Shown: piece after piece, positions 4,444 to 28,567 of the stretch | Layout of the letters: every line of letters begins with the position of its first letter | Numbering within the stretch: the first letter of the stretch is position 1 | Assembly (NCBI GenBank): GCA_964503235.1 | Contig: CAZCZJ010000001.1 | Coordinates: 5,851-69,850, forward strand | Source of the DNA: an uncultured Dehalococcoidaceae bacterium | Lineage (GTDB): Bacteria; Chloroflexota; Dehalococcoidia; Dehalococcoidales; RBG-16-60-22 | Reading direction: 5' to 3' | DNA: 64,000 bases | Notes under the pieces: model-generated | Databases searched by the model: none | Seen by the model: only the letters and a program-made list of their open reading frames with translations | Told to the model about the DNA's origin: nothing | Position numbers and translations under genes: made by a program

Positions 4444-4445
4444 TC

Positions 4446-4826: not shown

Positions 4827-4883
4827 TTTCCTGACGCCCGGTATTATCTCCATTTCCATAATCCGGGAAAGGATTTATAAATT

Positions 4884-7481: not shown

Positions 7482-7489
7482 TATTTTAA

Positions 7490-7578
7490 GTCATTGCGAG
7501 TCCTTCCGCTGAAGGACGAAGCAATCCGCTTTCTCTCAGGGGACGGATTACTTCGGGCGTAGCCCTCGTAATGACAGG
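7490..7578. repeat. Inverted doublet of the GIY-YIG-associated hairpin repeat (copies 3a and 3b) with no cargo gene
   Basis: 7490-7528 reads GTCATTGCGAG-[TCCTT ccgctg AAGGA]-CGAAGCAATCCG. The reverse complement of 7544-7578 reads cctGTCATTACGAG-[GGC tac GCC]-CGAAGTAATCCG. About 15 nt separate them, in the intergenic gap between the thiolase and CoA-transferase genes. Confidence 0.85.
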
Positions 7579-7601
7579 TATTTATCACTAAGGAGGTCGG
7601 C

Positions 7602-8339: not shown

Positions 8340-8340
8340 G

Positions 8341-9006: not shown

Positions 9007-9041
9007 TATATTCATAATCGACTCGACCAAGGAGGCTACCG

Positions 9042-9773: not shown

Positions 9774-9782
9774 GGCGTAGAG

Positions 9783-11990: not shown

Positions 11991-12026
11991 TCGGACACTT
12001 CTATTATATGCATAGAACAGTTTTAA

Positions 12027-12368
12027 TTGAAAGTGGGTTAGTTATCTTTTCCCGCCCACCTCCCTTTATGGAAAAGAGGGGGCTTCGCCCCCTCTTGAAC
12101 ACCCCCTACTTCTTGTAGAAGTCCTCTCTCGTTCCTTTACACTACAGGGTGGGGGGTTAAGGAGGCGGCGTCATCTTTCAATCATTCAAGATACTGGCCT
12201 GCTTTGAACAAATTAATAATGAGCATGATTCCCTTTGTTAATATTCCCCCTTCCTTTACCAAAGGAAGGGGGCTAGGGGGATGGATTCCGTAAAAAAGGG
12301 GTGAAATTAAAAAAGGGGGCGAAGCCGTAAATACGGTCTGACCCCTGTCTAATTAGCTCCAATATAAA
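12027..12368. repeat. Intergenic block of GC-rich palindromic repeats (region A)
   Basis: Hairpin AAGAGGGGGC-ttc-GCCCCCTCTT at 12074-12096, followed by gaacaccccc. C-rich/G-rich arms at ~12052-12064 and ~12148-12168. A perfect 12-bp hairpin CCCCCTTCCTTT-acc-AAAGGAAGGGGG at 12246-12272. Confidence 0.75.
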
Positions 12369-13925
12369 CTATTCTTTAGCTGTAATATAGTTTGAAGATT
12401 CCGATGCCTCGTTAGGGTCGAAGTTCTTCTTAATTTTCCTCAACAGGATATGGTAATTATGCGCTTCCGGTCCGTACATATCGTGGAGGGCGTCGCTCCA
12501 GACATGGTGGGGCACGCCGAAACGACCCCTTATCGCGGTTTTATTAGCCTCACGGCTGAGCATTCCCTGGACCTTCATGATATGGTCAGGCCCGGCCGGA
12601 TTATAGCGTATAAGAATCTCACCGTGACCGGTATGACCGTGCTCGATGGACTGTATAAACGGGTGAATATAGTCGTCCATGATAAGACCCTGGTCGATAA
12701 GCTGTTGCTTTAAATTCGAGGTATGCAGGATATAGCGGGTCATCAGCGGGAAGACATCCGAACCGCCGACGGTTCCGCCACCCCAACCCGTAGCACGTGA
12801 AGTCTCGCGAATAGAGCCGGTAATTCGAACAAACCTCCAGAGAAAACCAGCGCCCATTACGGGGTCCTCGACGTCCTTAAGCGACATGGCATCGGTCTCC
12901 TTCATTATCTCCTCCAGCGCGCCCTTCTTATAGGCAAAATCGTTGGCGGAATTACCGACGATAATCAACAAAAACCCCGGACCCTGCACCTGGCTGGCAA
13001 ACTTCGCTAAATAGTCCAGGTCTTCCTGGTTATCGGTAGCGATGTTGGAAGCCATCATGGCGGCGTTGAAGCCCATCAACGTGAAGCCTATTTCCGCCTC
13101 TCCCACCCTTTTAACAGCATCAATCGTCACATCAATATCTTTGAAAGACAGGTATCTTATCATGAAGTTCGGCGGCATTTCCGGGTGCCGGTACTGCGGG
13201 CAGACACCTTCAACGGGAAATACTGCCGGACCCGGCCAGTGGTATATCTTTACCGCGCCGGCCGTGAAGACGCCCAATCCGGCCAGAGGTGTGGAGTTAC
13301 CCCTGATAATACCTCTCAAAGACGGTCCGGGACCGTCGCCGCAAAACCAGTCGCCGTGAGAACCGAGGGAGCCCAACTTGACGATTTCGCCGTCGCCGGT
13401 TACCCACTCTACCGCCAGCATATTTCTTTCGGTATAGCTGCCGCTCTGGCTCATGTGTCCCAGACCCACGTGAGATGCCAGCGGCATGACCGAGCAGTTC
13501 GCCCCGGCACCACATTGATTACAGGTCAGACCGCGTTTCATCAATTCGGACTGGAGCTGAGCGCCGATAACGTATGGCTCGACGGCGGCATACATACCCT
13601 TTTCATTTATTTCCAGGATACGGTTCATGCGACGCAGGTCTATCTTGATACAATTCGGCGCTACAGGGTCGCAGTAAAGCCAGCCGGTACTCGATGCCTT
13701 ATACTGTACCTTTTGCTGGTTACAGAGTTTTACGATTGCCTGGACTTCCCGGGTATTAGAAGGGAGAGTCACAGCTTCGAACCGCGGTATATAGGTCACT
13801 TTTTCCGGCATGGTCTTTTTCCGGATAGGAAAAGAATAAGATTCCGTAACAACAGGGTCATCAGAAACATTCTCCGGCCCGAGTATATCCTCTAGTCTTT
13901 TATAAAAATCCCTATCGAGAGCCAT
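12369..13925 (-). CDS. FAD-binding (PCMH/GlcD-type) oxidoreductase subunit, divergent
   Basis: 518 aa. The N-terminal FAD_binding_4-like pattern (FEAVTLPSNTREVQAIVKLCNQQKV...IDLRRMNRILEINEKGMYAAVEPYV) is recognisable. The usual GGGT loop is divergent (ASSTGW). Confidence 0.7.
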   Translation of the reverse strand: MALDRDFYKRLEDILGPENVSDDPVVTESYSFPIRKKTMPEKVTYIPRFEAVTLPSNTREVQAIVKLCNQQKVQYKASSTGWLYCDPVAPNCIKIDLRRMNRILEINEKGMYAAVEPYVIGAQLQSELMKRGLTCNQCGAGANCSVMPLASHVGLGHMSQSGSYTERNMLAVEWVTGDGEIVKLGSLGSHGDWFCGDGPGPSLRGIIRGNSTPLAGLGVFTAGAVKIYHWPGPAVFPVEGVCPQYRHPEMPPNFMIRYLSFKDIDVTIDAVKRVGEAEIGFTLMGFNAAMMASNIATDNQEDLDYLAKFASQVQGPGFLLIIVGNSANDFAYKKGALEEIMKETDAMSLKDVEDPVMGAGFLWRFVRITGSIRETSRATGWGGGTVGGSDVFPLMTRYILHTSNLKQQLIDQGLIMDDYIHPFIQSIEHGHTGHGEILIRYNPAGPDHIMKVQGMLSREANKTAIRGRFGVPHHVWSDALHDMYGPEAHNYHILLRKIKKNFDPNEASESSNYITAKE

Positions 13926-13940
13926 TTTCCATGACCTCCT

Positions 13941-15209
13941 TTATACTGCCCTCTCCACCAGCTCAACGACATCATATACTTTCAATTTGCTACCGGTCTC
14001 TTTAATAGCCTTTACGAAATTCTGCTCACACCAGGGACAGGCAGTCACTATCGCCTCAGCCCCGGTGGCTTCGGCTTCCTTTATCCTCTCATCGGCCGTC
14101 CACAGGGAGAACTCGGGATTGGACTCATTGACACCACCACCAGCACCACAACACCAGGCGTACTCCTTTATCCTTACCATTTCCACCATTTTCAACCCAG
14201 GTATACTCTTAATGACATCCCGCGGCGGTTCGTATACACCGTATGTACCGCGCCGGAACTCCTTATACGGCTCGAAAACACGTATATGTCCCGGTACCTC
14301 CTTGCCCTGCCAGTGTATCCAGGGCTCCCCCAGCCTCCCCAGATAACACGGGTCATGATAGGTTACCGTCATACCCACTTTCTTCTTCGGCTTGAGATTG
14401 CCTTCCTTAATGATCCTGTCCAGATATTCGGTAATATGTACTACTTCCAGGTCTCCCCTGAGTTCATACTTATCATAGAGAACCTTGAATGCCTGATAGC
14501 CGTCAGCACAGCTGGTTACCAGTGTTTTGGCACCAGACTTCTTGATCATTGCCATGTTCTGCTTCGCCTGGTTCAGGAAGTCTTCCTTATAGCCCATCTG
14601 GTAGGCACGACCGCCGCAGCATGTCTCGTTATTACCCCCAATACCAACATCGATACCAGCCTTTTGTAAAAGTTTTACGGTGGCTTTAGCAAGCTTCCAC
14701 ATATCTTTGTTATAGCTGGTCAGGCAGCCGACTTGGTAAATAACATCTACCTTCTCTTTGGTATAGTCTTTTACCTTGAGTCCTGCCGCCCATTCTCCCC
14801 GCTTGCTCCTGGCCCCCGGTACCATCGTGCCCTGTTTCCTGAGACTGCCGATTACCTTGTCTAAAGCCGGGTTGGTATGCCCTTCCTCGACGGCTTTTAT
14901 CCTCGTCTCGTATATCGGCTCTATTACCTCCATGTCCATGGCATACTTACACGATACGTCGCAGGCCCCGCACATCTGGCAGTTGTAGATGATATCCAGA
15001 AGCTTGTCTGTATATTCAAGCCGGTTCTCCAGCATAGCTACGCCAATACCCATACGGCCGCCACCGGAATAGGCGTGAAAGTTATACCTGGATATACTGG
15101 GGCAGACGTTAACAGGCTGATATCCCGATACCTTTTCAAAGGGTATGAATTTACAGGCGGAGCACCTTCGGCACGTTTCCATTTCATTCCGTAAATCTTC
15201 CAGTGCCAT
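13941..15209 (-). CDS. (Fe-S)-binding protein with two CCG domains (GlcF / HdrD-like)
   Basis: 422 aa. N-terminal Cys clusters (CRRCSACKF...CP and CQMCGACDVSC) and two CCG motifs (ETCCGG, WCCGAGGG). Confidence 0.85.
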   Translation of the reverse strand: MALEDLRNEMETCRRCSACKFIPFEKVSGYQPVNVCPSISRYNFHAYSGGGRMGIGVAMLENRLEYTDKLLDIIYNCQMCGACDVSCKYAMDMEVIEPIYETRIKAVEEGHTNPALDKVIGSLRKQGTMVPGARSKRGEWAAGLKVKDYTKEKVDVIYQVGCLTSYNKDMWKLAKATVKLLQKAGIDVGIGGNNETCCGGRAYQMGYKEDFLNQAKQNMAMIKKSGAKTLVTSCADGYQAFKVLYDKYELRGDLEVVHITEYLDRIIKEGNLKPKKKVGMTVTYHDPCYLGRLGEPWIHWQGKEVPGHIRVFEPYKEFRRGTYGVYEPPRDVIKSIPGLKMVEMVRIKEYAWCCGAGGGVNESNPEFSLWTADERIKEAEATGAEAIVTACPWCEQNFVKAIKETGSKLKVYDVVELVERAV

Positions 15210-15258
15210 CTCTATTCCTCCTTGATTTGCCTACTGAAAACCTGACTTCGGAAATGTA

Positions 15259-16725
15259 TTAAAAGCAGAGCTTCCCCGGGTTCATGATACCAGCCGGGTC
15301 AACAATCGATTTCACCTTGCGTAATGTCGTCACTGTGGCCGCATCCCGGTTCATAATCATATCGGTACTTTCACCGTAAGGACGGGAAAAGAAAGCCCCC
15401 TTATCCATCAGCTTTCTCACAGCGCTTACGGATAATTGCTTTACTCTTTCCACATCAACCGGATTTGCCGGATTATAAAAAAGGTCGAATTCAACGTGAT
15501 AATTTACTCCCTGGACTATCGGCTGGATATACACGCCCATATCGGGGGTCGCGTAACCGACCTCCTCAGCGACGCTGTACATTGTCTCTATCAACTCGCC
15601 AACCTTCTGGAAATCCGAAATGAAGAATATTTCATAGCAGGCCCAGTCGGCGGGCGTTTTCCAGTAGAAATCACCCGGTGGTGCCTGCACCGCTTTGAGC
15701 AACTCAAAAGCTGAAATACTACCCAGGGACTGTGCCGGCTCCACACCAACACGCTGACATAATTCCTTGATATCCTGTACCTGTCCCTTGACCCTTTCTT
15801 CGGGCAGGTAGTCATAACCGGCGACGTTATAGAACAGTATCCAAGCAGGCAAAGAGCTTTTTATCCGGTTATAGTCGGCAGGCTTTCCTCTGGCCATAAT
15901 AGTAGCCATATCGGTATTATTTAAGATAAAGCATTCGTTCACCAGCCTCAGTCTCTGCAGCCAGTGTACCGTCTCCATTATCCTGTCCAGGTCCGATGCA
16001 CCTATCAGGAAAGGCTCTTCTGCTTTGGGTATGATTTCGCATCTTGCCGAAGCCCAGGTAACGATGCCTACCGTACCCTGGGCAGCCTGTATTACGCGAT
16101 ACCATGATGCGGAAGACGGTCCGGCTGCCTCTTTCTGCGCCCCACCGACCTCCCACTGTTCCTCCAGCGTGCCCGGTCCGGCAGCGGCTCCGGTGCGGAA
16201 AAGGTCACCGCTGCCATATATAATCTCCACGTCACAGAGAGGGTCGGCGATATCCCAATGGTACTTGGGCATGACCACAGGTTCCCTCTCCAGCATACTA
16301 CCGACAACAGATTTAGATTTCCGGGGCATGAGAGGTATATTCAGCCTGAGACCTTCTTTAGCCACCGCCGGTATCAATTCCCCGAAAGTCACCCCCGGCT
16401 CGAACATGACCACACGGTTGTACCGGTCTACCCTGATTATCTTTGTCATACCGCTCAAATCAACGATAACAGCGCCGCCGACGCTGGGAACGGTATCGCC
16501 GCGAAAATGAGGGGCTCCCGAGCTTACCGGCACCAGCGGGGTATTCGTCTTATTGGCAAGTTTTACTAATTTCTCAATGTCAGCCGTTTTCTTAACTTTC
16601 ACAATGTATTCCGGATTCAGTTTATTAACAAAGCTCATATCGCTGGCATATTCCCCCAGAGCAGCGGGTTTATCACTGACATTCCCGGCGCCGACTATTT
16701 TTATCAGCTTAGCTTTTTCAACCAT
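15259..16725 (-). CDS. FAD-binding (PCMH/GlcD-type) oxidoreductase subunit
   Basis: FAD_binding_4-like region (PEYIVKVKKTADIEKLVKLANKTNTPLVPVSSG...VDLSGMTKIIRVDRYNRVVMFEPGV). The start is moved to the ATG at 16725, which follows GAGGAGG (aatGAGGAGGatattATG). The track start at 16839 adds 38 implausible residues. Confidence 0.8.
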   Translation of the reverse strand: MVEKAKLIKIVGAGNVSDKPAALGEYASDMSFVNKLNPEYIVKVKKTADIEKLVKLANKTNTPLVPVSSGAPHFRGDTVPSVGGAVIVDLSGMTKIIRVDRYNRVVMFEPGVTFGELIPAVAKEGLRLNIPLMPRKSKSVVGSMLEREPVVMPKYHWDIADPLCDVEIIYGSGDLFRTGAAAGPGTLEEQWEVGGAQKEAAGPSSASWYRVIQAAQGTVGIVTWASARCEIIPKAEEPFLIGASDLDRIMETVHWLQRLRLVNECFILNNTDMATIMARGKPADYNRIKSSLPAWILFYNVAGYDYLPEERVKGQVQDIKELCQRVGVEPAQSLGSISAFELLKAVQAPPGDFYWKTPADWACYEIFFISDFQKVGELIETMYSVAEEVGYATPDMGVYIQPIVQGVNYHVEFDLFYNPANPVDVERVKQLSVSAVRKLMDKGAFFSRPYGESTDMIMNRDAATVTTLRKVKSIVDPAGIMNPGKLCF

Positions 16726-16900
16726 AATATCCTCCTCATTATCTGTCCTGTATACCTGAAAAATGGAATACCACCACAGGGTAAAATAGTCATTCGTATT
16801 TTCGCCTTCATGATAGCTTTCCGTTAGTTCTGATGTCAATTATCCCGGTTATACTATGTATTAGAGTCAGCTTTAATAGCTATTGTTTTAAGGATTCTTA

Positions 16901-17082
16901 CCTCACCCCTGACCCCTCTCCAGCCTTAAACATCAGTTAAAGACCAAAATTATAACTGGCTGGAGAGGGGAGTAAGTAAAAGATGGGGCTTCGCCCCCTC
17001 TTAAAAACACTCCCCCCCTTTCAAACAGACTAAATAGCGAGCATTGAATATATATCTGTTTGAGAGTGGGTCAGGGGGAGAG
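16901..17082. repeat. Composite GC-rich palindromic repeat element (region B)
   Basis: Arm CCTCACCCCTGACCCCTCTCCAGCC (16901-16925) with partner GGCTGGAGAGGGG (16958-16970). GC hairpin GGGGC-ttc-GCCCC with the cTCTTaaaaaCACTCCCC tail (16981-17020). TTCAAACAG (17020-17028) with partner CTGTTTGAGAGTGGGTCAGGGGGAGAG (17056-17082). Confidence 0.8.
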
Positions 17083-17127
17083 CGCTCTAAATCGACCAAA
17101 ACCAGACAAAACCGAAGTAACACTAAA

Positions 17128-17156
17128 TTGACAAAAGAACAAGCGTCATTTATAGT
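17128..17156 (+). promoter_or_regulatory. Sigma70-like promoter candidate (TTGACA-17 nt-TATAGT)
   Basis: TTGACA at 17128-17133, a 17-nt spacer, and TATAGT at 17151-17156, about 100 nt upstream of the SDR start. Confidence 0.35.
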
Positions 17157-17258
17157 ATGCCAGAGATAACACCCGGTAAATCACACCGGGGAGATACCAC
17201 CTCATAGCCCAACACCGGGATAATTCGTACAAGACGCATGATACACAAGGAGGATTAA

Positions 17259-18035
17259 ATGTTACTTTCAGACAGGGTAGCGATTATTACCGGAGGTTCA
17301 AGAGGGATGGGAAGAGCCATTGCCCTCCGGTTCGCTGAAGAAGGATGCTCTTCGGTCATCGCCGATCTTCTTGATAAAGAGGCGGAACAAACCGTTAAAG
17401 AGGTCTCGCAAAAAGGGAAAGAGGCTATCTACGTACGCTGTGACGTTACCGACAGCCGTCAGGTGAGAGCAATGGTGGATAAAGCCGTCGCTAAATTTAA
17501 AAAAGTTGATATCATGGTGAACTGCGCCGGCATAGGCAAGCCCCCCAAGCTTATCGGTGATATTTCCGAAGAAGAATACGACCAGGTCGTGGCAGTTAAT
17601 ATGAAAGGCATTTTCCTGTGCCTGCAGGCAATAGCACCTCATATGAAGGCGAACAACTACGGAAAGATTATCAATATAGCGTCTCTGGCGGGAGTCGTGC
17701 CGGCCGCATTTTCAATTCATTACGCCGCCGCCAAAGCCGGTGCGCTGCATCTATCGAACTGCTTCGCCCTGGAAATGGCTAAATACAACGTATGCGTTAA
17801 CGCTATTCTCCCGGGCATGATCCGGACCGATATGACCGCCGATTTTGCCCCTCCCGGCATTCCGGACCTTGATAAATTCATGGGCGAGATGGCTAAAGGA
17901 ATACCGTTAGGCAGGGAAGGTACTACAGATGATATTGCATCGGCAGCTTTGTTTCTGGCTTCAGACCAGTCTTCATATGTTACCGGGGACAGCATCAGTG
18001 TCGGGGGCGGTATGCCCGGGAGAGGTGCGCCGTAG
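17259..18035 (+). CDS. SDR family oxidoreductase (FabG-like)
   Basis: TGGSRGMG, NCAG and YAAAK motifs. RBS AGGAGG upstream. 258 aa. Confidence 0.85.
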   Translation: MLLSDRVAIITGGSRGMGRAIALRFAEEGCSSVIADLLDKEAEQTVKEVSQKGKEAIYVRCDVTDSRQVRAMVDKAVAKFKKVDIMVNCAGIGKPPKLIGDISEEEYDQVVAVNMKGIFLCLQAIAPHMKANNYGKIINIASLAGVVPAAFSIHYAAAKAGALHLSNCFALEMAKYNVCVNAILPGMIRTDMTADFAPPGIPDLDKFMGEMAKGIPLGREGTTDDIASAALFLASDQSSYVTGDSISVGGGMPGRGAP

Positions 18036-18079
18036 CCGTAATAATTTCGTTTTCATATTAGGCGCAGCCCCGGTATATT

Positions 18080-18108
18080 TTAACAATTACTTAAAAATCT
18101 GGTACTAT
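18080..18108 (+). promoter_or_regulatory. Sigma70-like promoter candidate (TTAACA-17 nt-TGgTACTAT) upstream of the CotH gene
   Basis: TTAACA at 18080-18085, a 17-nt spacer ending in TGg, and TACTAT at 18103-18108. Confidence 0.3.
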
Positions 18109-18180
18109 GATTAATTAAAATACAAATTTTCCACCAATATCTGTAAGTGGATGAAAAGCGAATACTCTTTTGGTTGCGTG

Positions 18181-19980
18181 ATGCTTAAAAGAAACAGGTC
18201 ATTTCTGTTAATACTACTTACATTGATGGTACTGGCAAGCGGGATAACAGGTTGCGGTGGTCTATCATCGGCAAAAACACAGGATGGCGCGTTCCCTTTT
18301 TATAAAGACCGTGTCGCGACAATCCGCATCGTGATGGAGGAAGAAGACTGGTCTTTCTGCCTGACCAACGCCTTCGAGGAGCAGTACGTTCCCGCCGATT
18401 TCTGGTTCGACGAAGAATTGATTCCCGATGTCGGTATCAGACCCAAAGGAAACTCGTCACTGGGTCAGGCTGTCGGCTGGGACAGTCCACGCATACCCCT
18501 GGCGATTGATTTTAATATATTCAACCGGGCACGTAATTTCCATGGTGTAAAGAAAGTATTTCTCAACAACGGATGGAGCGACCCCACCCTGATACGGGAA
18601 GTTGTTGCTTACGAGATATTTGCCGAAATGGGGATACCCACCCCGCGTGCTTCTCTCGTCGATGTGTGGGTAAACGATACTCACCTGGGTGTTTATACCA
18701 TGGTGGAAATGATAGACCAGGCTTTCATCGCGCGTCACTTCAATGACGCCACGGGTAATCTGTATAAACCGGAGCTGGTAGTGGCGCGGCTCGATTGGAC
18801 GGAAGAAGATGCCGAGAAGGATTTTTCCTCGCCGTTTTTCCCAGAACCACCTCCCAGACATGATCCCGTTCTATATACCAATATCGGCGGAGCTCCTCTG
18901 ATTGACCTTCTCAAGGCACTCGGCCAGGAAGAAATGGTGTCGCTATACACCCCGATTCCTCCCGCGGAAGGGAACCTATCCCGCGGTCTTCCCCCAGTGC
19001 GTATGCCAAGTAACTACCTTGATGCAATGGCATTAAAAACCAACGAAAATAACCCTGATTACTCGGGGTTATTCCGCTTTCTCGAAGTTCTTAATACCAA
19101 ACCGTCAGACAATTCTCTAGCCGATATCGAGGAAGTGATGGATGTAGATGAAATACTCAAGTTTATTGCCACCTCTGATGTTATCTTACACCTGGATAAC
19201 TATATCGGCATCGGGCACAATTATTACCTCTACGAGGTGGACGGCAAATTTTCTATCATTCCATGGGATGCGAACATGGCTTTCGGGACTTTTAATCTCG
19301 CCATTAAAAAGGAAGGACTCATTAACTACTATATTGATGAACCCACTGCTGGCCCAATGGTAAGATTTCCCCTTGTTTACCAGCTACTGAAACAGCCCGC
19401 TTATATGGAAAAGTACCGCGATTACGTACAGGAAGTTATCGACGAGCCGTTTGACCTTGATAGAGTCCTGGGACGTATCGACCAGCTTGTCGAAATGGTA
19501 CGTCCTTACGCCCAGGCTGATATGGAGATGTTTTACTCCTACGAAGACTGGGAACGCTGCCTTACCGAAGACCTAAGACCACCGGATATTTTTGAAGGCT
19601 GGATGGCTGGAGGCCCTTCACCCCAGCTTCCCTTCTTTCTCTCAAGCAGCGAATCCGCTTTCCTGAAGCAAAATTTCGGTGTCAACAGCCTCTGGGAGTT
19701 GTTTTCCATAGAACTGACCGAAGAAGATATCGCCAAATTGGGAGAGGGGCTTAGCGAGGAAACTTATTCTCTCTTTTTACAGAATTATTACGGGCCGCTG
19801 ATGGCACCACAGCCCCCCCATCAGCCTGGCTTCGGGCCAAACTCTCTGGGATTAATCACCTTTATCAAGGCACGCTATGAATCGGCTGTGAAGCAGCTAA
19901 ACGGAGAAATACCCAGTGGCTCGGGCCGAGGTATGGGTAACGGCGGTGATATGTGGATGGCGGACATGTTTAATTTTTAG
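18181..19980 (+). CDS. CotH kinase family protein, predicted lipoprotein
   Basis: CotH-type motifs (VFLNNGWSDPTLIREVVAYEIF; HNYYLYEVDGKFSIIPWDANMAFG). Signal peptide with lipobox (LMVLASGITGC). The start is set at the ATG at 18181 (MLKRNRSF...). Confidence 0.8.
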   Translation: MLKRNRSFLLILLTLMVLASGITGCGGLSSAKTQDGAFPFYKDRVATIRIVMEEEDWSFCLTNAFEEQYVPADFWFDEELIPDVGIRPKGNSSLGQAVGWDSPRIPLAIDFNIFNRARNFHGVKKVFLNNGWSDPTLIREVVAYEIFAEMGIPTPRASLVDVWVNDTHLGVYTMVEMIDQAFIARHFNDATGNLYKPELVVARLDWTEEDAEKDFSSPFFPEPPPRHDPVLYTNIGGAPLIDLLKALGQEEMVSLYTPIPPAEGNLSRGLPPVRMPSNYLDAMALKTNENNPDYSGLFRFLEVLNTKPSDNSLADIEEVMDVDEILKFIATSDVILHLDNYIGIGHNYYLYEVDGKFSIIPWDANMAFGTFNLAIKKEGLINYYIDEPTAGPMVRFPLVYQLLKQPAYMEKYRDYVQEVIDEPFDLDRVLGRIDQLVEMVRPYAQADMEMFYSYEDWERCLTEDLRPPDIFEGWMAGGPSPQLPFFLSSSESAFLKQNFGVNSLWELFSIELTEEDIAKLGEGLSEETYSLFLQNYYGPLMAPQPPHQPGFGPNSLGLITFIKARYESAVKQLNGEIPSGSGRGMGNGGDMWMADMFNF

Positions 19981-20023
19981 TTTGGAATTGTCCATCTATT
20001 AGGAAGGAATACATACCGAATAA

Positions 20024-20782
20024 ATGAGCAAAGTTATCACTGATAATAAGCCCGTAAGCAGATTCGAACGGAAATTCTCCATACTCCCCAGGAATATCGG
20101 GTTTGCCCTCGCCTTCTTGAGGCAGGTCTGCCGACCTGACAGAGAATACCCCAAAGACCGGGTCAACAGTTTGTATTTTGATTCTGCTGACCTCGATGAA
20201 TACATACGGTCGGCTTCGGGTGAGTTTAGAAAGAACAAGGTACGCATCCGCTGGTACGGCACGGTTCGCGAGGGCGCAGGAATCCCACCCGCATACCTGG
20301 AACTTAAATCCAGGGAGGGCTTTGCCAGCAGCAAACAGAGAGAGAAGCTTACCGTTCCTTCTGAGAACCTTTTTCCCGACCGCCTGTGCAGAGGTATCGT
20401 AGATAAAACGACGCTGAATAATACCCTGGCAAAATTCGGCCATTTCACGGAGGCACCGCTGAGACCGGTTATTGTCATATCTTATCAACGCTACAGATTC
20501 CAGGAAATACAGACGGGCATACGCGTTTCTTTCGATTATGATATCTCCGCATCGATGATTGCCCCGGAACTGCGACGTTACGAAAGCAGGTTAAGCCTCC
20601 CGAGCGCCGTTATTGAAGTCAAGGGCCCGACCCTGGAATTACCGTTTACCCTGCGGCGTATGAAATTCCTGGATACGGACTGGAGTCGATTCTCCAAATA
20701 CGGATACTGCATTGACGCGTTTCTCTCTGACCCGGGCAGCGTAGCGCGTTTTTCACCCTCGGGAAAAATTATAGACCTATAG
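20024..20782 (+). CDS. VTC domain-containing protein (polyphosphate-polymerase-like triphosphate tunnel fold)
   Basis: 252 aa. RFERKF..., SLYFDSADLDEY and KVRIRWY strand motifs are characteristic of bacterial VTC-domain (PF09359-like) proteins. Confidence 0.75.
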   Translation: MSKVITDNKPVSRFERKFSILPRNIGFALAFLRQVCRPDREYPKDRVNSLYFDSADLDEYIRSASGEFRKNKVRIRWYGTVREGAGIPPAYLELKSREGFASSKQREKLTVPSENLFPDRLCRGIVDKTTLNNTLAKFGHFTEAPLRPVIVISYQRYRFQEIQTGIRVSFDYDISASMIAPELRRYESRLSLPSAVIEVKGPTLELPFTLRRMKFLDTDWSRFSKYGYCIDAFLSDPGSVARFSPSGKIIDL

Positions 20783-20801
20783 ACTTGAAGGAGGACTTTT
20801 T

Positions 20802-21473
20802 ATGTTTGACGGACTATGGGAACTCATTAACAGCCTGAAGTCCCCGGTGGGACTCTGGGAAGCCGTGCTTGCCATCCTTTTTTCACTGATAGCATCCATT
20901 ATCGTGTATTTGATGTACCAGCTGTTTTACGGCTCCAGGCACATCGGTGCCGGGGTACATCGCACGTTCATCATCGGAGGTCCGGCCATTACGGCCTTAT
21001 TCCTCGGTATTCAGGTTTCCATTCCTCTTTCTCTGGGACTTCTGGGAGCGTTATCATTCGTCCGTTTCCGCACCCCGGTGAAAGACCCGGCGGAAATCGG
21101 TTTCCTGCTGTTACTCATAGCTTCATCAATCGGCGCCGCCACGGATAACTATCTGGCAACCGGTATTCTGTTCGGGGTAGTTTTTATTGCCCTGGGTATT
21201 CAGTGGCTTTTCCGTAATCGCTTTAACCTGTTCGGACGTGGTAATCTGATGATTTCGGTTGACCAGCCATCCTATCCGGAACTTGAGAAGAAACTCTCCT
21301 CTTTTCTTAAGGACCGCCTCGGCGGACTCAGGATGGAGACTATGTCTGTAATAGAAGACAGGGTTAGCCTTCATTATCAGTACCGGAAAAAGACCGGTTA
21401 CGACTGGGCAACCTTTACCAACGACCTCAACCAGATAGCGGCTCCGGCGAAGGTTGAGATATTTGTTGGTTAG
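20802..21473 (+). CDS. DUF4956 domain-containing membrane protein
   Basis: 223 aa and multi-pass. The signature GALSFVRFRTPVKDPAEIGFLLLLIASSIGAA matches the conserved (S)xVRFRTxxKDxxD core I recall for DUF4956. RBS GGAGGA upstream. Confidence 0.65.
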   Translation: MFDGLWELINSLKSPVGLWEAVLAILFSLIASIIVYLMYQLFYGSRHIGAGVHRTFIIGGPAITALFLGIQVSIPLSLGLLGALSFVRFRTPVKDPAEIGFLLLLIASSIGAATDNYLATGILFGVVFIALGIQWLFRNRFNLFGRGNLMISVDQPSYPELEKKLSSFLKDRLGGLRMETMSVIEDRVSLHYQYRKKTGYDWATFTNDLNQIAAPAKVEIFVG

Positions 21474-21506
21474 TATATTGAGTACGCTTTCGTCCCGTTA
21501 AGATGT

Positions 21507-21550
21507 TTGACAAAGATGTTTGACAAAAATGAATAACAGATGGGTATAAT
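21507..21550 (+). promoter_or_regulatory. Promoter candidate with tandem AGATGTTTGACAA repeats, upstream of the catalase leader
   Basis: Two TTGACA hexamers (21507-21512 and 21520-21525) lie within a 13-bp tandem repeat. TATAAT is at 21545-21550, with a 19-nt spacer from the second hexamer, which is longer than optimal. Confidence 0.3.
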
Positions 21551-21610
21551 TAAAGTGTAATCAAATCACGAGTTTCTGTATAACGGGAGGTTGAGGCGGG
21601 ATGAGCACCA

Positions 21611-21660
21611 GGGTACCGACTATAAATATATCACATTAGTCGGTGCCCTTTTTTATTTTT
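21611..21660 (+). terminator. Intrinsic-terminator-like hairpin plus U-run inside the catalase 5' leader (possible attenuator)
   Basis: GGGUACCGACUA (21611-21622) pairs with UAGUCGGUGCCC (21637-21648) over 12 bp with one G-U. The loop is 14 nt and is followed by TTTTTTATTTTT (21649-21660). It lies 28 nt before the catalase ATG. Confidence 0.45.
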
Positions 21661-21687
21661 CTGAAATTTGACCACAGGAGGTTTTTC

Positions 21688-23190
21688 ATGAAAAAGGGGA
21701 AAAAGACCTACACAACCGGATTCGGCGCTTCAGTAGATAACGACCAGAACAGCAAGGCAGCCGGCGCCTACGGCCCGCTGTTGATTCAGGACACCCACCT
21801 GCTGGAGAAGCTGGGGCACTTCGACCGGGAGCGTATCCCGGAGCGCGTCGTCCACGCCAAGGGCGGCGGGGCGCACGGCTACTTTGAGGTTACGGCGGAT
21901 GTTACCAAGTACACCAAGGCTAAATTCCTCTCGGAAATCGGCAAGCGTACCGATGTCTTTGCCCGCTTTTCTACCGTCGGCGGGGAGAGAGGTTCGGCCG
22001 ACGCCGAGCGTGACCCCCGCGGCTTCGCCCTGAAGTTCTACACCGAAGAAGGCAACTACGATATGACCGGCAACAACACCCCCGTCTTCTTCATCCGCGA
22101 CCCCTTAAAATTCCCGGACTTTATACACACGCAGAAGCGACACCCGGGCTCCAATCTCAAGGACGCCAGCATGTTCTGGGACTTCCTTTCGCTGACGCCG
22201 GAATCGGTCCACCAGGTAACCATTCTCTTCTCCGACCGGGGCACGCCGCGTACTTTCCGCAACATGAACGGCTATAGCAGCCATACCTTCAAGTGGTACA
22301 ACGCCAAGGGCGAGTATTTCTGGGTGAAATATCACTTCAAGACAGAGCAGGGCATCGACAACCTGACCCGTGACGAGGCCACCGAGATGAAGGGGAAAGA
22401 CCCCGACCACGCCGTCCGTGACCTCTATCAAGCCATCGAGCGCGGCGAATACCCATCCTGGCGGCTGGAGATGCAGGTAATAACCCCGGAGCAGGCCGAG
22501 AAATACCGCTTCGATTCCTTCGATGTCACCAAGGTCTGGTTCCACGCCGATGTCAAGCCGTTTACCATCGGGCGGATGGTGCTCAACCGAAACCCCAAGA
22601 ACTACTTCGCCGAGGTGGAGCAGGCGGCTTTCTCTCCGGCTAACTTCGTGCCCGGTATCGCGGCCTCGCCGGACAAGCTCTTGCAGGGGCGTCTCTTCTC
22701 CTACCACGACACGCACATCCACCGTCTGGGCGTCAACTACCCGATGATTCCCATCAACCGCCCCAAGAACGCCGTCAACTACTACCAGCGCGACGGTTCT
22801 ATGAACGTCGATAACGCCGGCGATGGTCCCAATTACTACCCCAACAGCTTCGGCGGGCCGGAGCCGCAGCCCGATGCCGCCGAGCCGCCTTTCGAGGTCA
22901 GCGGTGAGGCGCGCCGTCACCCCTATACCCACCCCAACGACGACTTCTTCCAGCCCGGCGAGCTTTACCGGCGGGTAATGACTGATATGGACCGCAACCA
23001 CCTCATCGGTAATATCAACACGCATTTATGTAACGCCCAGAAGCGAATCCAGCTACGCCAAGCGGCCGTCTTCTATAAGTGCGACCCGGAGTACGGCAGC
23101 CGTGTTGCCGAAGGTCTGGGACTCGACGTGAAAGAGGTAAAGAGCCTTGCCGAGATGACCCAGGACGAACGTGCCGAGGCAACATCCTAG
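21688..23190 (+). CDS. katA: Monofunctional heme catalase
   Basis: About 500 aa. Motifs include [51 protein letters not shown] and [17 protein letters not shown]. The start is set at the ATG at 21688 after AGGAGG. The track start at 21643 lies inside the terminator U-run. Confidence 0.95.
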
Positions 23191-23212
23191 AGAAAATCAA
23201 TAGCTACAATAA

Positions 23213-23250
23213 AAGAGACGTGGATTGAGTTGCCTCTCTCCACGTCTCTT
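23213..23250. terminator. Bidirectional terminator-like hairpin between the convergent catalase and lipoprotein genes
   Basis: AAGAGACGTGGA (23213-23224) and TCCACGTCTCTT (23239-23250) form a perfect 12-bp stem. The T-run is weak (cATATTTTgg). Confidence 0.5.
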
Positions 23251-23280
23251 CATATTTTGGTTTAACTCACCCCCGGCCGG

Positions 23281-24357
23281 TTATTCCAGGTGAAAGCTCC
23301 TGATGACGGCATCAATGATCGCCTCGTCATGGGCAAAGGTGCTGACCGGACCGAAACCCATTAGGTTGAAGCCGTCCTCCCCCCGCATGACAATAACACA
23401 TTTCGCCGTGAGGTAAAAGCCCTCCATGGTGGCATTAAACACGAACTCATAGGCCGGGGTGCCATCATCCATGGTTATCTCGCCTTCGGAAAGCAGCTCG
23501 TAGTCGGGGAAATTATCAGTATATACCTGCCTGGCTCCGGCCACCGCCGCCTCAACACTGCCCGCTCCCGTCATCGTCCTGACCATCACCTCGGGCACTC
23601 CCGTATCGGCCCGGAGGTCGAGGATTTCCGCAAACCCACCGGTGGTACAGTCAGACCATCCCTCCGGGTAGGTGATGGAGAATCCGAATTCGGCGTTGGT
23701 ATAGGTACCGCCGGGACTGGAGGCCGGCGGCTCATAAGTATAAGGCAGCAGCTCAAAGCTGTCGATGATATCGTCCAGCAGCGGCCGCTGCGCATCGAAC
23801 CTGTCGGGTTCTCCGTAGACACCGACCATGATAAGCTGTCCCTCCCGCACCAGGACGATATAGCGGTACTTCTGCAGCTCACCAACGTCCTCATCACCCT
23901 GGCCGAGCATCTCGTAGCCGGAGATATCGTCGCCGATGGTGACGTAACCCTCGGAGAACATCTCGTATTCCGGCATCGTCTCCATGTACTCTTTAATTTC
24001 GGCAACGGCGTCTTCAAGGACAATCTCCCCGGTCTGGTAGTCTACCGATACGAATACCGAGAGACTCCCTTCGGGTTCGTTGCAGATGAAATAACAACTT
24101 GTCGGCCCGCCGTGAGTGTTCTCGTCCCATCCCTCGGGATGCTCAAAGGAAAAGCCGTGCTCCGTGTTCTCGTAGAGGGTCATGGTCAGGGCCGGGGAAC
24201 CAGGTGTAGTCGTTTGGGTTGAAGTTGAAGTAGTGGCGGTTGTTGTTGCAGATGTCGTTGTGGCCGCCGTTGTCCCGCACTGGCAGCCAACTATGAACAG
24301 GGCCAGCACGGCCAGAACAGTCAAGATAAGGCTCATCCCGCCTCTTTTGCCTGTCAT
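23281..24357 (-). CDS. Secreted lipoprotein with a Thr-rich linker and two tandem homologous domains, function unknown
   Basis: Signal peptide and lipobox (LALFIVGCQCG). Low-complexity TTAATTTSATTTATTSTSTQTTTPG. Two repeats start ..HGFSFEHPEGWDE.. and ..FGFSITYPEGWSD.. A PsbP/DUF1795-like fold is only suspected. Confidence 0.6.
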   Translation of the reverse strand: MTGKRGGMSLILTVLAVLALFIVGCQCGTTAATTTSATTTATTSTSTQTTTPGSPALTMTLYENTEHGFSFEHPEGWDENTHGGPTSCYFICNEPEGSLSVFVSVDYQTGEIVLEDAVAEIKEYMETMPEYEMFSEGYVTIGDDISGYEMLGQGDEDVGELQKYRYIVLVREGQLIMVGVYGEPDRFDAQRPLLDDIIDSFELLPYTYEPPASSPGGTYTNAEFGFSITYPEGWSDCTTGGFAEILDLRADTGVPEVMVRTMTGAGSVEAAVAGARQVYTDNFPDYELLSEGEITMDDGTPAYEFVFNATMEGFYLTAKCVIVMRGEDGFNLMGFGPVSTFAHDEAIIDAVIRSFHLE

Positions 24358-24477
24358 GGCCCCACTCCCTTTTTTCAGCTGATTCAGGTTTGTGTCATTC
24401 CGTCGTTTACACTACTCCTTTGTCCGTAGTATGTCAATGGTACTAATTTCCTATTACCAGTTTAATAATGAACGACA

Positions 24478-25746
24478 TCATACCGCTCTTTCTACCAGCT
24501 CAACGACATCATATACTTTCAATTTGCTACCGGTCTCTTTAATAGCCTTTACGAAATTCTGCTCACACCAGGGACAGGCAGTCACTATCGCCTCAGCCCC
24601 GGTAGCTTCAGCTTCCTTTATCCTCTCATCGGCCGTCCACAGTGAGAACTCAGGATTAGACTCGTTAACGCCGCCACCGGCACCACAACACCAGGCGTAT
24701 TCCTTTATCCTCACCATCTCTACCAGTTTCAACCCAGGTATACTCTTAATGACATCCCGCGGCGGCTCGTATACACCGTATGTACCGCGCCGGAACTCCT
24801 TATACGGCTCGAATACACGTATATGTCCCGGTACCTCCTTGCCCTGCCAGTGTATCCACGGCTCTCCCAGCCTCCCCAGATAACACGGGTCATGATAGGT
24901 TACCGTCATACCCACTTTCTTCTTCGGCTTGAGATTGCCTTCCTTAATGATCCTGTCCAGATATTCGGTAATATGTACTACTTCCAGGTCTCCCCTGAGT
25001 TCATACTTATCATAGAGAACCTTGAATGCCTGATAGCCGTCAGCACAGCTGGTTACCAGTGTTTTGGCACCAGACTTCTTGATCATTGCCATGTTCTGCT
25101 TCGCCTGGTTCAGGAAGTCTTCCTTATAGCCCATCTGGTAGGCACGACCGCCGCAGCATGTCTCGTTATTACCCCCAATACCAACATCGATACCAGCCTT
25201 TTGTAAAAGTTTTACGGTGGCTTTAGCAAGCTTCCACATATCTTTGTTATAGCTGGTCAGGCAGCCGACTTGGTAAATAACATCTACCTTCTCTTTGGTA
25301 TAGTCTTTTACCTTGAGTCCTGCCGCCCATTCTCCCCGCTTGCTCCTGGCCCCCGGTACCATCGTGCCCTGTTTCCTGAGACTGCCGATTACCTTGTCTA
25401 AAGCCGGGTTGGTATGCCCTTCCTCGACGGCTTTTATCCTCGTCTCGTATATCGGCTCTATTACCTCCATGTCCATGGCATACTTACACGATACGTCGCA
25501 GGCCCCGCACATCTGGCAGTTGTAGATGATATCCAGAAGCTTGTCTGTATATTCAAGCCGGTTCTCCAGCATAGCTACGCCAATACCCATACGGCCGCCA
25601 CCGGAATAGGCGTGAAAGTTATACCTGGATATACTGGGGCAGACGTTAACAGGCTGATATCCCGCCACTTTCTCCAGAGGAATAAATTTACAGATATTGC
25701 ATTTATTGCATAATTCCATGTCTTCCCGGTAATCCTGTAATGCCAT
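24478..25746 (-). CDS. (Fe-S)-binding CCG-domain protein, paralog of 13941..15209
   Basis: 422 aa, the same length and no indels (constant offset of 10537 nt). The protein is identical to copy 1 apart from the first ~28 residues and one M/L change. Confidence 0.85.
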   Translation of the reverse strand: MALQDYREDMELCNKCNICKFIPLEKVAGYQPVNVCPSISRYNFHAYSGGGRMGIGVAMLENRLEYTDKLLDIIYNCQMCGACDVSCKYAMDMEVIEPIYETRIKAVEEGHTNPALDKVIGSLRKQGTMVPGARSKRGEWAAGLKVKDYTKEKVDVIYQVGCLTSYNKDMWKLAKATVKLLQKAGIDVGIGGNNETCCGGRAYQMGYKEDFLNQAKQNMAMIKKSGAKTLVTSCADGYQAFKVLYDKYELRGDLEVVHITEYLDRIIKEGNLKPKKKVGMTVTYHDPCYLGRLGEPWIHWQGKEVPGHIRVFEPYKEFRRGTYGVYEPPRDVIKSIPGLKLVEMVRIKEYAWCCGAGGGVNESNPEFSLWTADERIKEAEATGAEAIVTACPWCEQNFVKAIKETGSKLKVYDVVELVERAV

Positions 25747-25889
25747 CTATTCCTCCTTCGAATCATCCACATGACCGTATTTAAATCCCAACTACATACC
25801 AATCAATTATAACTATGGTCGATATCCTGTCAAGTTAATTCCTATCCTATCTGGTAATTTCACTGTTTTCCCTGACCATGCCTATTTTA

Positions 25890-26073
25890 CCTCACCCCCT
25901 TTTTCCCCCTCTCCAACCCGGTTCTCTACTGAAATAATTATATTAGACTGGTCGTAGAGGGGGAGAGATTTTGAGTGGGGGCAAAGCCCCCTCTCTCTTA
26001 CACTCCCCTTTCCAATCAATTATTACTTAGGCTTGCCTTGATGCTCAAGGCTGGAGAGGAGTCAGGGGAGAGG
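25890..26073. repeat. Composite GC-rich palindromic repeat element (region C), same organisation as region B
   Basis: Arm CCTCACCCCCTTTTTCCCCCTCTCCAACC (25890-25918), GTAGAGGGGGAGAG (25955-25968), GC hairpin GGGGGC-aaa-GCCCCC with the TCTCTCTTACACTCCCC tail (25973-26010), and arm GGCTGGAGAGGAGTCAGGGGAGAGG (26049-26073). Confidence 0.8.
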
Positions 26074-26207
26074 CAAAGATATCAACAGGATACAGAAAGT
26101 ATTTCTTACCGGTATTGATTCTCCCAATCCCTCACCGGACATAACCAGTAGAGATAGGTATGCCTACAATGCTATAATGACAGTATGAGCCTTCAGGAGG
26201 ACTACCA

Positions 26208-26741
26208 ATGGCTAGAAAACTCACCGTCATTCCGGAGCAGTGTTCGGGATGCCGTATCTGCGAACTGGTATGCGCCATTAAGCATTTCGGGGTGAACAAT
26301 CCTAAAAAATCGGCAATAAGAATTATCAATACCTACCCTCACCCCGTGATGAGAATGCCCGTTGTCTGCAGCCAGTGCAAGGTGCCCGCCTGCGCCCAGG
26401 TATGCCCCACCGATTCCCTGCATCTGGTCGACGGCATCGTTCAACTCGATAAGGAAAGCTGCATTTCCTGTTTTAAATGCGTGGAAGCCTGTCCCTTCGG
26501 GGCCATCTACGCTCATGAAGAATGCGACCTGCCCATTAAGTGCGACTTATGCGGCGGCGAACCCGAGTGTGTCATCAACTGCCCTCTCGGCGCCCTCAGG
26601 ATGATACCGGAACACGCTCTCGGTGAGACTAAGAGGCTGAACAATGTCCTGAGCTATACCCAGATGAGAGAGATAGAGTTTTACGAGAAGGGCGAGAAGA
26701 AGACCATCCATTACGCCGAGATAGGGAAGGAAGAGCTATGA
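26208..26741 (+). CDS. 4Fe-4S ferredoxin-type protein (poly-cluster), AOR-associated electron-transfer subunit
   Basis: Four Cys motifs (CSGCRICELVC, CSQCKVPACAQVCP, CISCFKCVEACP, CDLCGG..ECVINCP). The stop overlaps the AOR start (ATGA). Confidence 0.85.
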   Translation: MARKLTVIPEQCSGCRICELVCAIKHFGVNNPKKSAIRIINTYPHPVMRMPVVCSQCKVPACAQVCPTDSLHLVDGIVQLDKESCISCFKCVEACPFGAIYAHEECDLPIKCDLCGGEPECVINCPLGALRMIPEHALGETKRLNNVLSYTQMREIEFYEKGEKKTIHYAEIGKEEL

Positions 26742-28567
26742 GCATCAAGAGCGGCTATTTCAAGAAATATCTGCAGGTTGACCTTACGCATAACAGCCTG
26801 GACCGCCGCGAGCTGTCGGACGCTTTCCTTGAGAGGTATATCGGCGGGCGTGGCTTCGGTGCCAAGCTTGTCTGGGATAACCTGAAAAAGCATAATTTTA
26901 AAATCAATCCCCTGGGTGAGGAAAACCTGGTGGTGATTGCCCCCGGGCCGCTGACCGGTGCTTACCTGCCCTCGTCCGGGAAGAACTCTTTCGTGGCGAT
27001 TTCACCGGCAACCGGGCTTTATGGTGACTCTTCCATCGGTGGCGGTTTCGGCGTTGAGTTGCGGCAGTCGGGAATCGATGCTCTTTCTATAACCGGTAAA
27101 GCTCCGGAGCTATCTGTCCTGTATATAGATAATAGCGAATCTTCCATAATTCCCATGCCCGACCTGAAGGGGAAAACTTGCCTGGAAACCGAGGGTATTA
27201 TCCGGGAACGGCTGGAAACACAGACCGCCCACATCGCCACTATCGGACCGGCAGGGGAGAATTTAGTAAAGTTCGCCTGCGTTAATACCGACTGGGGTCG
27301 TAATGCTGGTCGCACCGGCTTCGGGGCTATTTTAGGCTCTAAAAACCTTAAAGCAATTGTCGTCCGAGGGCACCATGATATCCCGGTATATGATATCCGG
27401 GGACTGACTGCCGAAGCTAACAAGGCTTTTAAATACCTGAAAGAGCACAAGTTTTACAAACTATGGCAGCAGCAGGGACTGATGAACGTTATCGAGTACG
27501 CCAACGAAAAGGGCATTCTACCGACGTATAACTTCAAGGACAGCGTTTTCGCCAGGCATGAACAGATAAATGGGGAGACAATGCTTTCCGACTACAAGAT
27601 AGGCGACGCCGCCTGTTTTTCCTGTGCCATGGGCTGCGCCAATATCTGCCTGGTGAAAAACGGCAAGTACACGGGCACCGTAATTGAAGGCCCCGAATAC
27701 GAATCCTGCGCCATGCTCGGGTCGAATGTGGGTATCGATGATTTCGCGGCGATACTGGCGGGAAACCAGCTTTGCGATGAACTCGGTATGGATACTATTT
27801 CAACCGGTAACCTCATCGGGGCTATCATCGAAGGATATGAAAATGGGATTATTTCTCTAACTGACCTCGACGGAAAGGATATCACCTGGGGAGACGATGA
27901 CGCGGTACTCGAGTTGATTAAAAAGATAGCTCACCGCGAGGGCATCGGTGATATCCTTGCCGACGGACCGCGCCGTATCATCGAGAAATGGCCTGAAATG
28001 GACGATATCATCCTTCAGGTAAAGGGACTGGAGCAGTCGGCCTACGACAGCCGCGCCGGCAGTTCCATGGCGCTGGCCTACGCTACGTCGGACATCGGAG
28101 CCCATCATACCAGGGCGTGGACTATCGCCCGCGAAATGGAAGAGGGTCAAAACTGGTCAGACGAAGATAGAGTCGAGACCGTAATATACCACCAGACGCT
28201 ACGTCCCCTATTCGATATGCTGGGCGTTTGCCGTCTGCCCTGGATAGAGCTGGGATTGAATGAGAAACACTACGAATATTTTTACCAGCACATCACGGGT
28301 AATCAGCTCACCCTGGAACAGCTGCTTAAACTGTCGAAAGACATTTATGACCTTACCCGCCAGATAAACGTGCGTCTCGGCGTCAGCCGCAAAGACGATA
28401 CCTTACCGCATAAAGTCCATGCCAGCCCGGCGTTAACCGGACCAAATGCCGGCAAAGTGGTGGATAAAGAGCATTTTCAGGAACTGCTCTCGCTGTATTA
28501 CCGGAAACGCGGCTGGGACGAAGACGGCCTACCGCCCGATACGACAGAGAGCAAATTTGACGACTGA
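26738..28567 (+). CDS. Aldehyde:ferredoxin oxidoreductase family protein (tungstopterin-type AOR)
   Basis: 609 aa. N-terminal AFOR_N-like region (YIGGRGFGAKLVWD), the Cys cluster region DAACFSCAMGC, and GMDTISTGN motifs. Confidence 0.9.
   Translation: MSIKSGYFKKYLQVDLTHNSLDRRELSDAFLERYIGGRGFGAKLVWDNLKKHNFKINPLGEENLVVIAPGPLTGAYLPSSGKNSFVAISPATGLYGDSSIGGGFGVELRQSGIDALSITGKAPELSVLYIDNSESSIIPMPDLKGKTCLETEGIIRERLETQTAHIATIGPAGENLVKFACVNTDWGRNAGRTGFGAILGSKNLKAIVVRGHHDIPVYDIRGLTAEANKAFKYLKEHKFYKLWQQQGLMNVIEYANEKGILPTYNFKDSVFARHEQINGETMLSDYKIGDAACFSCAMGCANICLVKNGKYTGTVIEGPEYESCAMLGSNVGIDDFAAILAGNQLCDELGMDTISTGNLIGAIIEGYENGIISLTDLDGKDITWGDDDAVLELIKKIAHREGIGDILADGPRRIIEKWPEMDDIILQVKGLEQSAYDSRAGSSMALAYATSDIGAHHTRAWTIAREMEEGQNWSDEDRVETVIYHQTLRPLFDMLGVCRLPWIELGLNEKHYEYFYQHITGNQLTLEQLLKLSKDIYDLTRQINVRLGVSRKDDTLPHKVHASPALTGPNAGKVVDKEHFQELLSLYYRKRGWDEDGLPPDTTESKFDD

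Follow-up and report, generated by a model that had tools for sequence, protein, structure and literature searches.

Probable recurrent gene conversion between two paralogous CCG-domain iron-sulfur subunit genes of an uncultured Dehalococcoidaceae bacterium

We analyzed a stretch of 64,000 nucleotides (nt) from an uncultured Dehalococcoidaceae bacterium (contig CAZCZJ010000001.1 of GenBank assembly GCA_964503235.1), referred to here as the window, which carries two genes for CCG-domain iron-sulfur (Fe-S) subunits. Copy 1, at the A locus (13941..15209, minus strand), lies within an operon, and copy 2, at the B locus (24478..25746, minus strand), is a stand-alone or "orphan" paralog. Sequence comparisons make it likely that copy 2 overwrote 577–799 nt of copy 1 in the window strain, so that copy 2 would be the donor and copy 1 the recipient of the latest conversion. 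With similar confidence we take recurrent interlocus gene conversion between the two paralogs to be real.

The identical tract and an unconverted allele

Both open reading frames (ORFs) are 1269 nt (422 codons) long and align without a gap at a constant offset of 10537 nt, the layout that an initial annotation of this DNA had described. Homology stops at the ORF borders, outside which identity is about 25%. Within them, positions 14329-15127 of copy 1 and 24866-25664 of copy 2 are the same over 799 nt without any difference; the initial annotation had put this tract at about 0.8 kb. In copy 1 the 799 nt are the upper bound of the putative converted tract, and in copy 2 they represent the donor sequence. 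The flanks are diverged. The 3′ 388 nt (13941-14328 in copy 1) hold 24 differences between the copies, 22 of which are synonymous, in line with the two dozen mostly synonymous changes that had been reported. The M/L exchange given as the sole protein change in this part stood as such (M341L, GLKMVEMV vs GLKLVEMV), and the 24th difference was found in the stop codon (TAA vs TGA). At the 5′ end (15128-15209 in copy 1), 31/82 nt differ, giving 11 amino-acid changes within codons 4–28. These include the first Cys motif, which is CRRCSAC in copy 1 and CNKCNIC in copy 2, and the strong divergence noted there earlier was therefore real. Thus the pairwise alignment that had been proposed as a check confirmed the layout, the identical tract and the diverged flanks.

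A run of identity this long is not expected from the number of differing sites. When these sites were permuted, 0/200,000 permutations gave a run of at least 799 nt (longest run 347 nt; P < 5e-6). The length was also never reached when the 24 downstream differences were limited to third codon positions, where the longest run was 536 nt. In a Sawyer-type test for a sharp-ended tract, the analytic probability of the 799-nt run was ~5.5e-11.

The closest protein in a large collection (P0001) is encoded on JGI contig Ga0315554_1000333 (JGI 3300031255), referred to here as L080. This contig aligned without gaps to window positions 3941-15257, with 45 mismatches in 11,317 nt. All 45 mismatches fall within 14499-15075, and copy 1 is identical to copy 2 at every one of them, whilst at the 55/55 sites that separate the window copies copy 1 is identical to L080. 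An L080-type copy 1, taken as the state before the event, differs from copy 2 at 100 sites, namely 31 in gene nt 7–82, 32 in nt 135–222, 13 in nt 363–711 and 24 in nt 882–1268. L080 thus serves as an unconverted reference and gives the direction of transfer as copy 2 to copy 1. Because all of the L080 differences lie in the identical tract with copy 1 matching copy 2, they point to an overwriting of copy 1 by copy 2. The minimal converted tract of 577 nt (14499-15075) spans all 45 window-vs-L080 sites, and the tract ends lie inside identity islands of 52 nt (nt 83–134) and 170 nt (nt 712–881). A B-type patch now in copy 1 at codons 45–74 (14988-15077) departs from the unconverted allele at 32 nt and 16 amino acids. 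Altogether, 18 residues of the operon-encoded subunit were changed by the latest event.

Two paralog lineages and a layered mosaic

Related loci were typed as A or B by their neighboring genes. A scan of species-representative genomes found 79 loci, the best with 82% protein identity; 78 were from metagenome-assembled genomes (MAGs) of Dehalococcoidales or other Chloroflexota, and one was labelled candidate division Zixibacteria. Type A loci (L001-L008) have the order FADb-CCG-FADa, the flanking genes encoding FAD-binding subunits, followed by an SDR gene. Type B loci are divergent from a ferredoxin (Fd) and aldehyde:ferredoxin oxidoreductase (AOR) gene pair, and in distant relatives (L011, L012, L014, L017, L019 and L025) have the order FADb′-CCG′, with the FADb′ gene, of about 490 codons, between the ferredoxin and CCG genes. 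L081, L164 and L165 carry orphan copies orthologous to copy 2 at the corresponding locus. Both loci, the A operon and the B locus next to Fd/AOR, therefore occur in related MAGs and metagenome contigs, and these distinct orthologous loci exclude an independent recent duplication. No remnant of FADb′ was found in the 461-nt spacer 25747-26207 of the window; the B locus of the window clade has lost this gene.

The first 28 codons, which contain the first CxxCxxC motif, keep the two lineages apart. Here copy 1 (15128-15209, identical to L080) has 81–94% nt identity to A orthologs vs 67–77% to B-locus orthologs, and copy 2 (25665-25746) has 72–81% nt identity to B orthologs; each is merely 56–77% identical to the opposite lineage. 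At the protein level, the copy 2 N-terminus shares 79–89% amino-acid identity with the B-type N-termini of other genera. Diagnostic sites showed how the types alternate along the gene. In codons 1–18 each copy has the type of its own locus (A for copy 1, B for copy 2), whilst both copies are A-type in codons 35–45, B-type in codons 55–74 and A-type again in codons 82–368. The two genes thus appear to be paralogs of an HdrD/GlcF-like Fe-S subunit that diverged long ago and occupy two distinct, conserved loci. The loss of the dedicated FADb′ partner coincides with the B copy having an A-type body.

Synonymous (dS) and non-synonymous (dN) divergence between the L080 copy and copy 2 was estimated by segment with the Nei-Gojobori method. 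In codons 1–28 dS was saturated (dN 0.32), whereas the adjoining codons 29–44 gave zero for both measures. Codons 45–74 were again highly diverged (dS 1.65, dN 0.32), codons 75–293 gave a dS of 0.084 (dN 0.004) and codons 294–422 a dS of 0.317 (dN 0.003). The orthologs of the window species and a second species, described below, differ in the body by a dS of 0.5–1.6, compared with 0–0.32 between the paralogs, as concerted evolution predicts. Because dS differs so between segments while orthologs differ by 0.5–1.6, the layered mosaic would need several conversions of different ages. Accordingly dated by dS, the 3′ segment of copy 1 (13941-14328; dS 0.32, dN 0.003 vs copy 2) would reflect an older homogenization, and diagnostic sites, dS and the segment tree suggest that the 3′ segment of copy 2 (24478-24865) owes its A-type ancestry to an older A-to-B conversion. 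As judged from these substitutions, both copies are under purifying selection, because non-synonymous change is nearly absent. Both also look functional, given the 22 synonymous changes to 1 non-synonymous change in the 3′ segment and the conserved promoter and ribosome-binding site of copy 2 (see below).

Neighbor-joining trees with bootstrap were constructed for separate segments, and their phylogenies conflicted. The tree of the 5′ end grouped sequences by locus (84–90% bootstrap), whilst the trees of the body (nt 223–881) and of the 3′ segment grouped them by genome (100%). In the patch tree, the two copies of each genome paired at 100%, and the L080 copy joined the A-lineage orthologs (83%). 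Bodies that group by genome, with 5′ ends that group by locus, are on these trees the pattern of concerted evolution. A recombination test that drew on relatives had been proposed for this pair, and the permutations and segment trees across related genomes together support gene conversion.

Recurrence and alternative explanations

A second species, represented by JGI contigs L163 and L164, has the same synteny as the window. Of the 47 sites that separate its A copy from its B copy, 31 lie in nt 7–105, 13 in nt 466–549 and 3 at the extreme end, so that two stretches, of 360 and 713 nt, are free of any difference; the contigs break inside the repeat. The A copy of this species also has the B patch. 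In a further lineage, L165, the CCG gene of the B locus (Fd, CCG, catalase) is B-type at its 5′ end and A-type in the patch, which shows a transfer in the opposite direction. Conversion was not seen in 14 other two-copy MAGs, where the copies are 63–76% identical and no identical run exceeds 38 nt. The gene conversion that the initial annotation had put forward is thus borne out by the old 5′ lineages, the layered mosaic, the unconverted L080 allele and the recurrence in a second species.

Several observations weigh against this interpretation. The latest event rests on two assemblies that are identical elsewhere, which is also how a difference between assemblers would look. That assemblies can take hybrid paths between the copies is shown by L162 (Ga0315548_1064247, JGI 3300031551), a contig of 1607 nt from the same population in a third sample, which we compared with window positions 25982-24480 and 15156-13839. 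It joins the upstream flank and nt 1–363 of copy 2 to nt 556–1268 of an L080-type copy 1 and the FADa flank, and is either a 10.5-kb crossover deletion between direct repeats or a chimera from an assembly-graph loop. A second record of this strain's junction between the A-type 5′ end and the B patch was not found; when the first 127 residues of copy 1 were used as a query for such fragments, nothing exceeded 89% identity, and a metagenome scan gave no near-identical contig, the closest being L147 at ~85% nt identity. In addition, the A-type form of the patch arose as a derived state within one clade, and the label "B-type" for the patch rests mainly on its nt identity with copy 2 and its contrast with L080.

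These points bear above all on the possibility that the perfect tract was created during assembly, from a copy 1 that is in truth L080-type, ~92% identical to copy 2, and was threaded through or collapsed with it. L080, the sole other assembly of the strain, does differ from the window within the tract only, L162 documents a hybrid path in another sample of the population, and the second-species contigs break inside the repeat, whereas the window contig crosses both copies. We nevertheless consider an artefact unlikely from the arrangement of the sites. Its 5′ switch must fall in the 52 nt between the A-specific nt 82 and the B-specific nt 135, a shared stretch shorter than the usual final k-mer (the 3′ junction falls in the 170-nt stretch). 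With a final k of at least 55, no node of a de Bruijn graph would be shared there, and the junction would need real reads. Bulge collapsing would not be expected to switch 45 sites as one block while similar isolated differences at nt 882–1143 stay, and the patch, at 36% divergence, is probably too different to be homogenized by mis-mapping or polishing. The absence of Ns from the window may also speak against an artefact. Two direct repeats in one contig should give a simple loop in the assembly graph, through which a path can be found even when no read pairs span it, so the continuity of the contig need not be suspicious. Finally, the older mosaic layers and the second species, whose contigs come from independent assemblies, are beyond the reach of this explanation, and the older concerted evolution is independent of whether the latest event is real.

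The polarity could also be reversed in time, with the converted state being older and the L080 lineage having regained an A-type tract from a related unconverted strain. The A copy of the second species has the B patch, so that state could be older, and recombination between strains is common. However, this requires two events rather than one, the L080 differences are confined to the stretch of identity between copies 1 and 2, as expected from conversion, and the pairing of each genome's copies at 100% in the patch tree points to separate recent events. We regard reversed polarity as distinctly improbable, and even then the identity of copies 1 and 2 would still stem from gene conversion.

Lastly, the equal lengths, lack of indels and nearly identical bodies might be read as copy 2 being a recent duplicate of copy 1 with fast 5′ divergence, or as identity held by extreme selection at synonymous sites, but we give this hardly any credence: the 5′ end and locus of copy 2 have orthologs in other genera with the same Fd/AOR neighbor (79–89% amino-acid identity) and dS is saturated at the 5′ end with no difference in the next 52 nt, and an ortholog dS of 0.5–1.6 in the body and the 45 L080 differences within the tract show synonymous sites free to change. 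Together these findings contradict both readings.

Gene neighborhood, proposed history and meaning

Pfam assigned to both proteins an N-terminal Fer4_8 dicluster domain (PF13183) and two CCG stretches (PF02754, E 3e-30), the domain content of CCG-domain Fe-S subunits of the HdrD/GlcF/GlpC/TfrB-like kind. Their sequence relatives in the PDB are HdrB chains and an "iron-sulfur-binding reductase". The copy 1 protein is identical to the NCBI protein P0122, encoded on a contig of 69,882 nt. The specific equivalogs TfrB, LdhH, GlpC and GlcF were not supported, every curated NCBIfam score being far under its cut-off (157–158 bits vs 385 for TfrB, 105 vs 800 for LdhH, 61–63 vs 278 for GlpC and 36 vs 333 for GlcF).

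Pfam also upheld the gene contexts given in the initial annotation, with copy 1 between two FAD-binding subunit genes and copy 2 an orphan facing a ferredoxin/AOR pair. Copy 1 is flanked upstream by FADb (15259-16839, minus strand; FAD_binding_4 / FAD-oxidase_C) and downstream by FADa (12369-13925, minus strand; FAD_binding_4), both recognized by Pfam/NCBIfam profiles, in a GlcDEF-like layout. Contig L080 (27.5 kb) breaks off at window position 15257, which is 48 nt upstream of where copy 1 starts and slightly before the stop codon of FADb would be reached. GlcDEF glycolate oxidase and other FAD_binding_4/CCG enzymes (GlpC, TfrB, LdhH, HdrD) have a like architecture of two FAD_binding_4 subunits and one Fer4_8/two-CCG subunit. 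The window differs from GlcDEF in its D-F-E-like gene order and in reaching no equivalog cut-off, and from GlcDEF-type enzymes generally in its extra stand-alone Fe-S subunit gene, copy 2.

Copy 2 is flanked by a PsbP_2-like gene and by the divergent genes for ferredoxin (26208-26741) and AOR (26738-28567), which mark the B locus on the plus strand (26208-28567). Upstream of copy 2 are a GGAGG ribosome-binding site (AAGGAGGAATAG) and, about 60 nt from the gene, a 12/12 match to the sigma-70 consensus promoter, TTGACA-16-TATAAT (25833-25806, minus strand). Promoter and ribosome-binding site are kept upstream of the orphan copy in 4/4 B-locus sequences (window, L081, L164 and L165), and this conservation in three other lineages suggests that copy 2 is transcribed on its own.

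The PsbP_2-like gene (23281-24357), which lies between copy 2 and a catalase gene, has the look of an insertion specific to its lineage: in the second species (L164) and in L165 it is missing from this position, and catalase comes immediately after the B copy. Between the two copies (18151-23190) is a CotH-VTC-DUF4956 cluster followed by catalase, an order kept in the second species and partly in L001, L006 and L007. The "GC-rich palindromic repeat blocks" described beside both loci held up in part: hairpins are present, but they are merely short intergenic ones outside the homology. These G+C-rich hairpins lie at 12246-12272, 16913-16970 and 25904-25964, with arms resembling CCCCTCTCC / GGAGAGGGG. 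Rfam gave no match for them, and a role as shared repeats or known RNAs was not supported. Elsewhere in the window, a 45-nt repeat (2060-2104 and 7490-7534, 84% identical) with a hairpin-like core, GTCATTGCGAG...CGAAGCAATC, may be a REP-like intergenic element.

The mosaic, its polarity, the recurrence in sister lineages and the purifying selection on both copies are shown by the comparisons above, whereas the recombination mechanism and the cause of the 5′-end escape are inferred. Because the copies are direct repeats a mere 10.5 kb apart, homologous recombination without crossover could repeatedly move sequence from one to the other. Older A-to-B conversions would have put A-type sequence in nearly the whole body of copy 2 (codons 75–422), leaving B-type islands at codons 1–28 and 45–74. 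The latest event would then have carried 577–799 nt of copy 2 into copy 1, resolved within the 52-nt (5′) and 170-nt (3′) identity islands, and so would have moved the B-type patch into the operon copy, changing the 18 residues at once. The first 28 codons would never have been exchanged, each locus retaining its own first cluster-binding motif.

Two explanations of this escape are possible. One is position: the 5′ end lies at the edge of homology, and the upstream sequence is non-homologous save for the ribosome-binding site, so that there would be no anchor for resolution of a tract. The internal patch, which is equally diverged but flanked by identity on both sides, is transferred. The other is selection, as the N-termini of either type are conserved between genera, and the A-type N-terminus has a dN of 0 between the two species. 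The unconverted margin is ~16 nt at the 3′ edge vs 82–105 nt at the 5′ edge, an inequality that hints at selection on the 5′ end. The initial annotation had suggested that the diverged N-terminal regions might dock to different partners; they are conserved within each locus type, but their position at the edge of homology would account for the escape from conversion just as well.

A doubtful possibility is that copy 2 serves as a swap-in electron-transfer subunit for the flavoenzyme of copy 1. Conversion would keep its body matched to the FAD subunits of the A operon after the loss of FADb′, whilst the first 28 residues, which supply three ligands to the first [4Fe-4S] cluster, would be held locus-specific by selection. 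If so, the enzyme could be wired to another redox partner, for example the adjacent ferredoxin/AOR, and gene conversion would maintain a modular subunit pair with a shared body and a private head.

The process itself is well known as the classical form of concerted evolution between dispersed paralogs in bacteria, and is not a new kind of system. tufA/tufB, mtrA and other prokaryotic paralog pairs undergo concerted evolution (Wang and Chen, 2018; PMC6053082). These pairs resemble ours in being dispersed paralogs at conserved distinct loci that encode subunits of complexes, in being closer within a genome than orthologs are between genomes, synonymous sites included, and in recurring across lineages. 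The HdrD/GlcF-like CCG family is apparently not among its cases, "heterodisulfide" having no match in the text of that paper. Unlike tufA/tufB-type cases, conversion in the window is partial, the first 28 codons being locus-specific, and here both directions of transfer are documented and an unconverted allele of the same strain is at hand. Gene conversion has also been described between ribosomal RNA (rRNA) operons, with rates in E. coli (PMC8022953), and between PE/PPE and other repeats in M. tuberculosis (PMC12046097, PMC13061034). Those cases share with ours non-reciprocal tracts of a few hundred nt between dispersed repeats, visible as near-clonal polymorphisms, but they were resolved in isolates by long reads or experiments, whereas the window case is inferred from metagenome assemblies. 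A literature search found no report of gene conversion in Dehalococcoidia.

With donor, recipient and unconverted allele all available, the two genes show with unusual clarity how interlocus gene conversion proceeds naturally in bacteria. They also illustrate how a single step can bring 18 amino-acid changes into a redox subunit encoded in an operon. Such paralogs mislead ortholog calling, strain-level analysis of single-nucleotide polymorphisms and HdrD/GlcF-like phylogenies in MAGs, and they also yield hybrid contigs such as L162.

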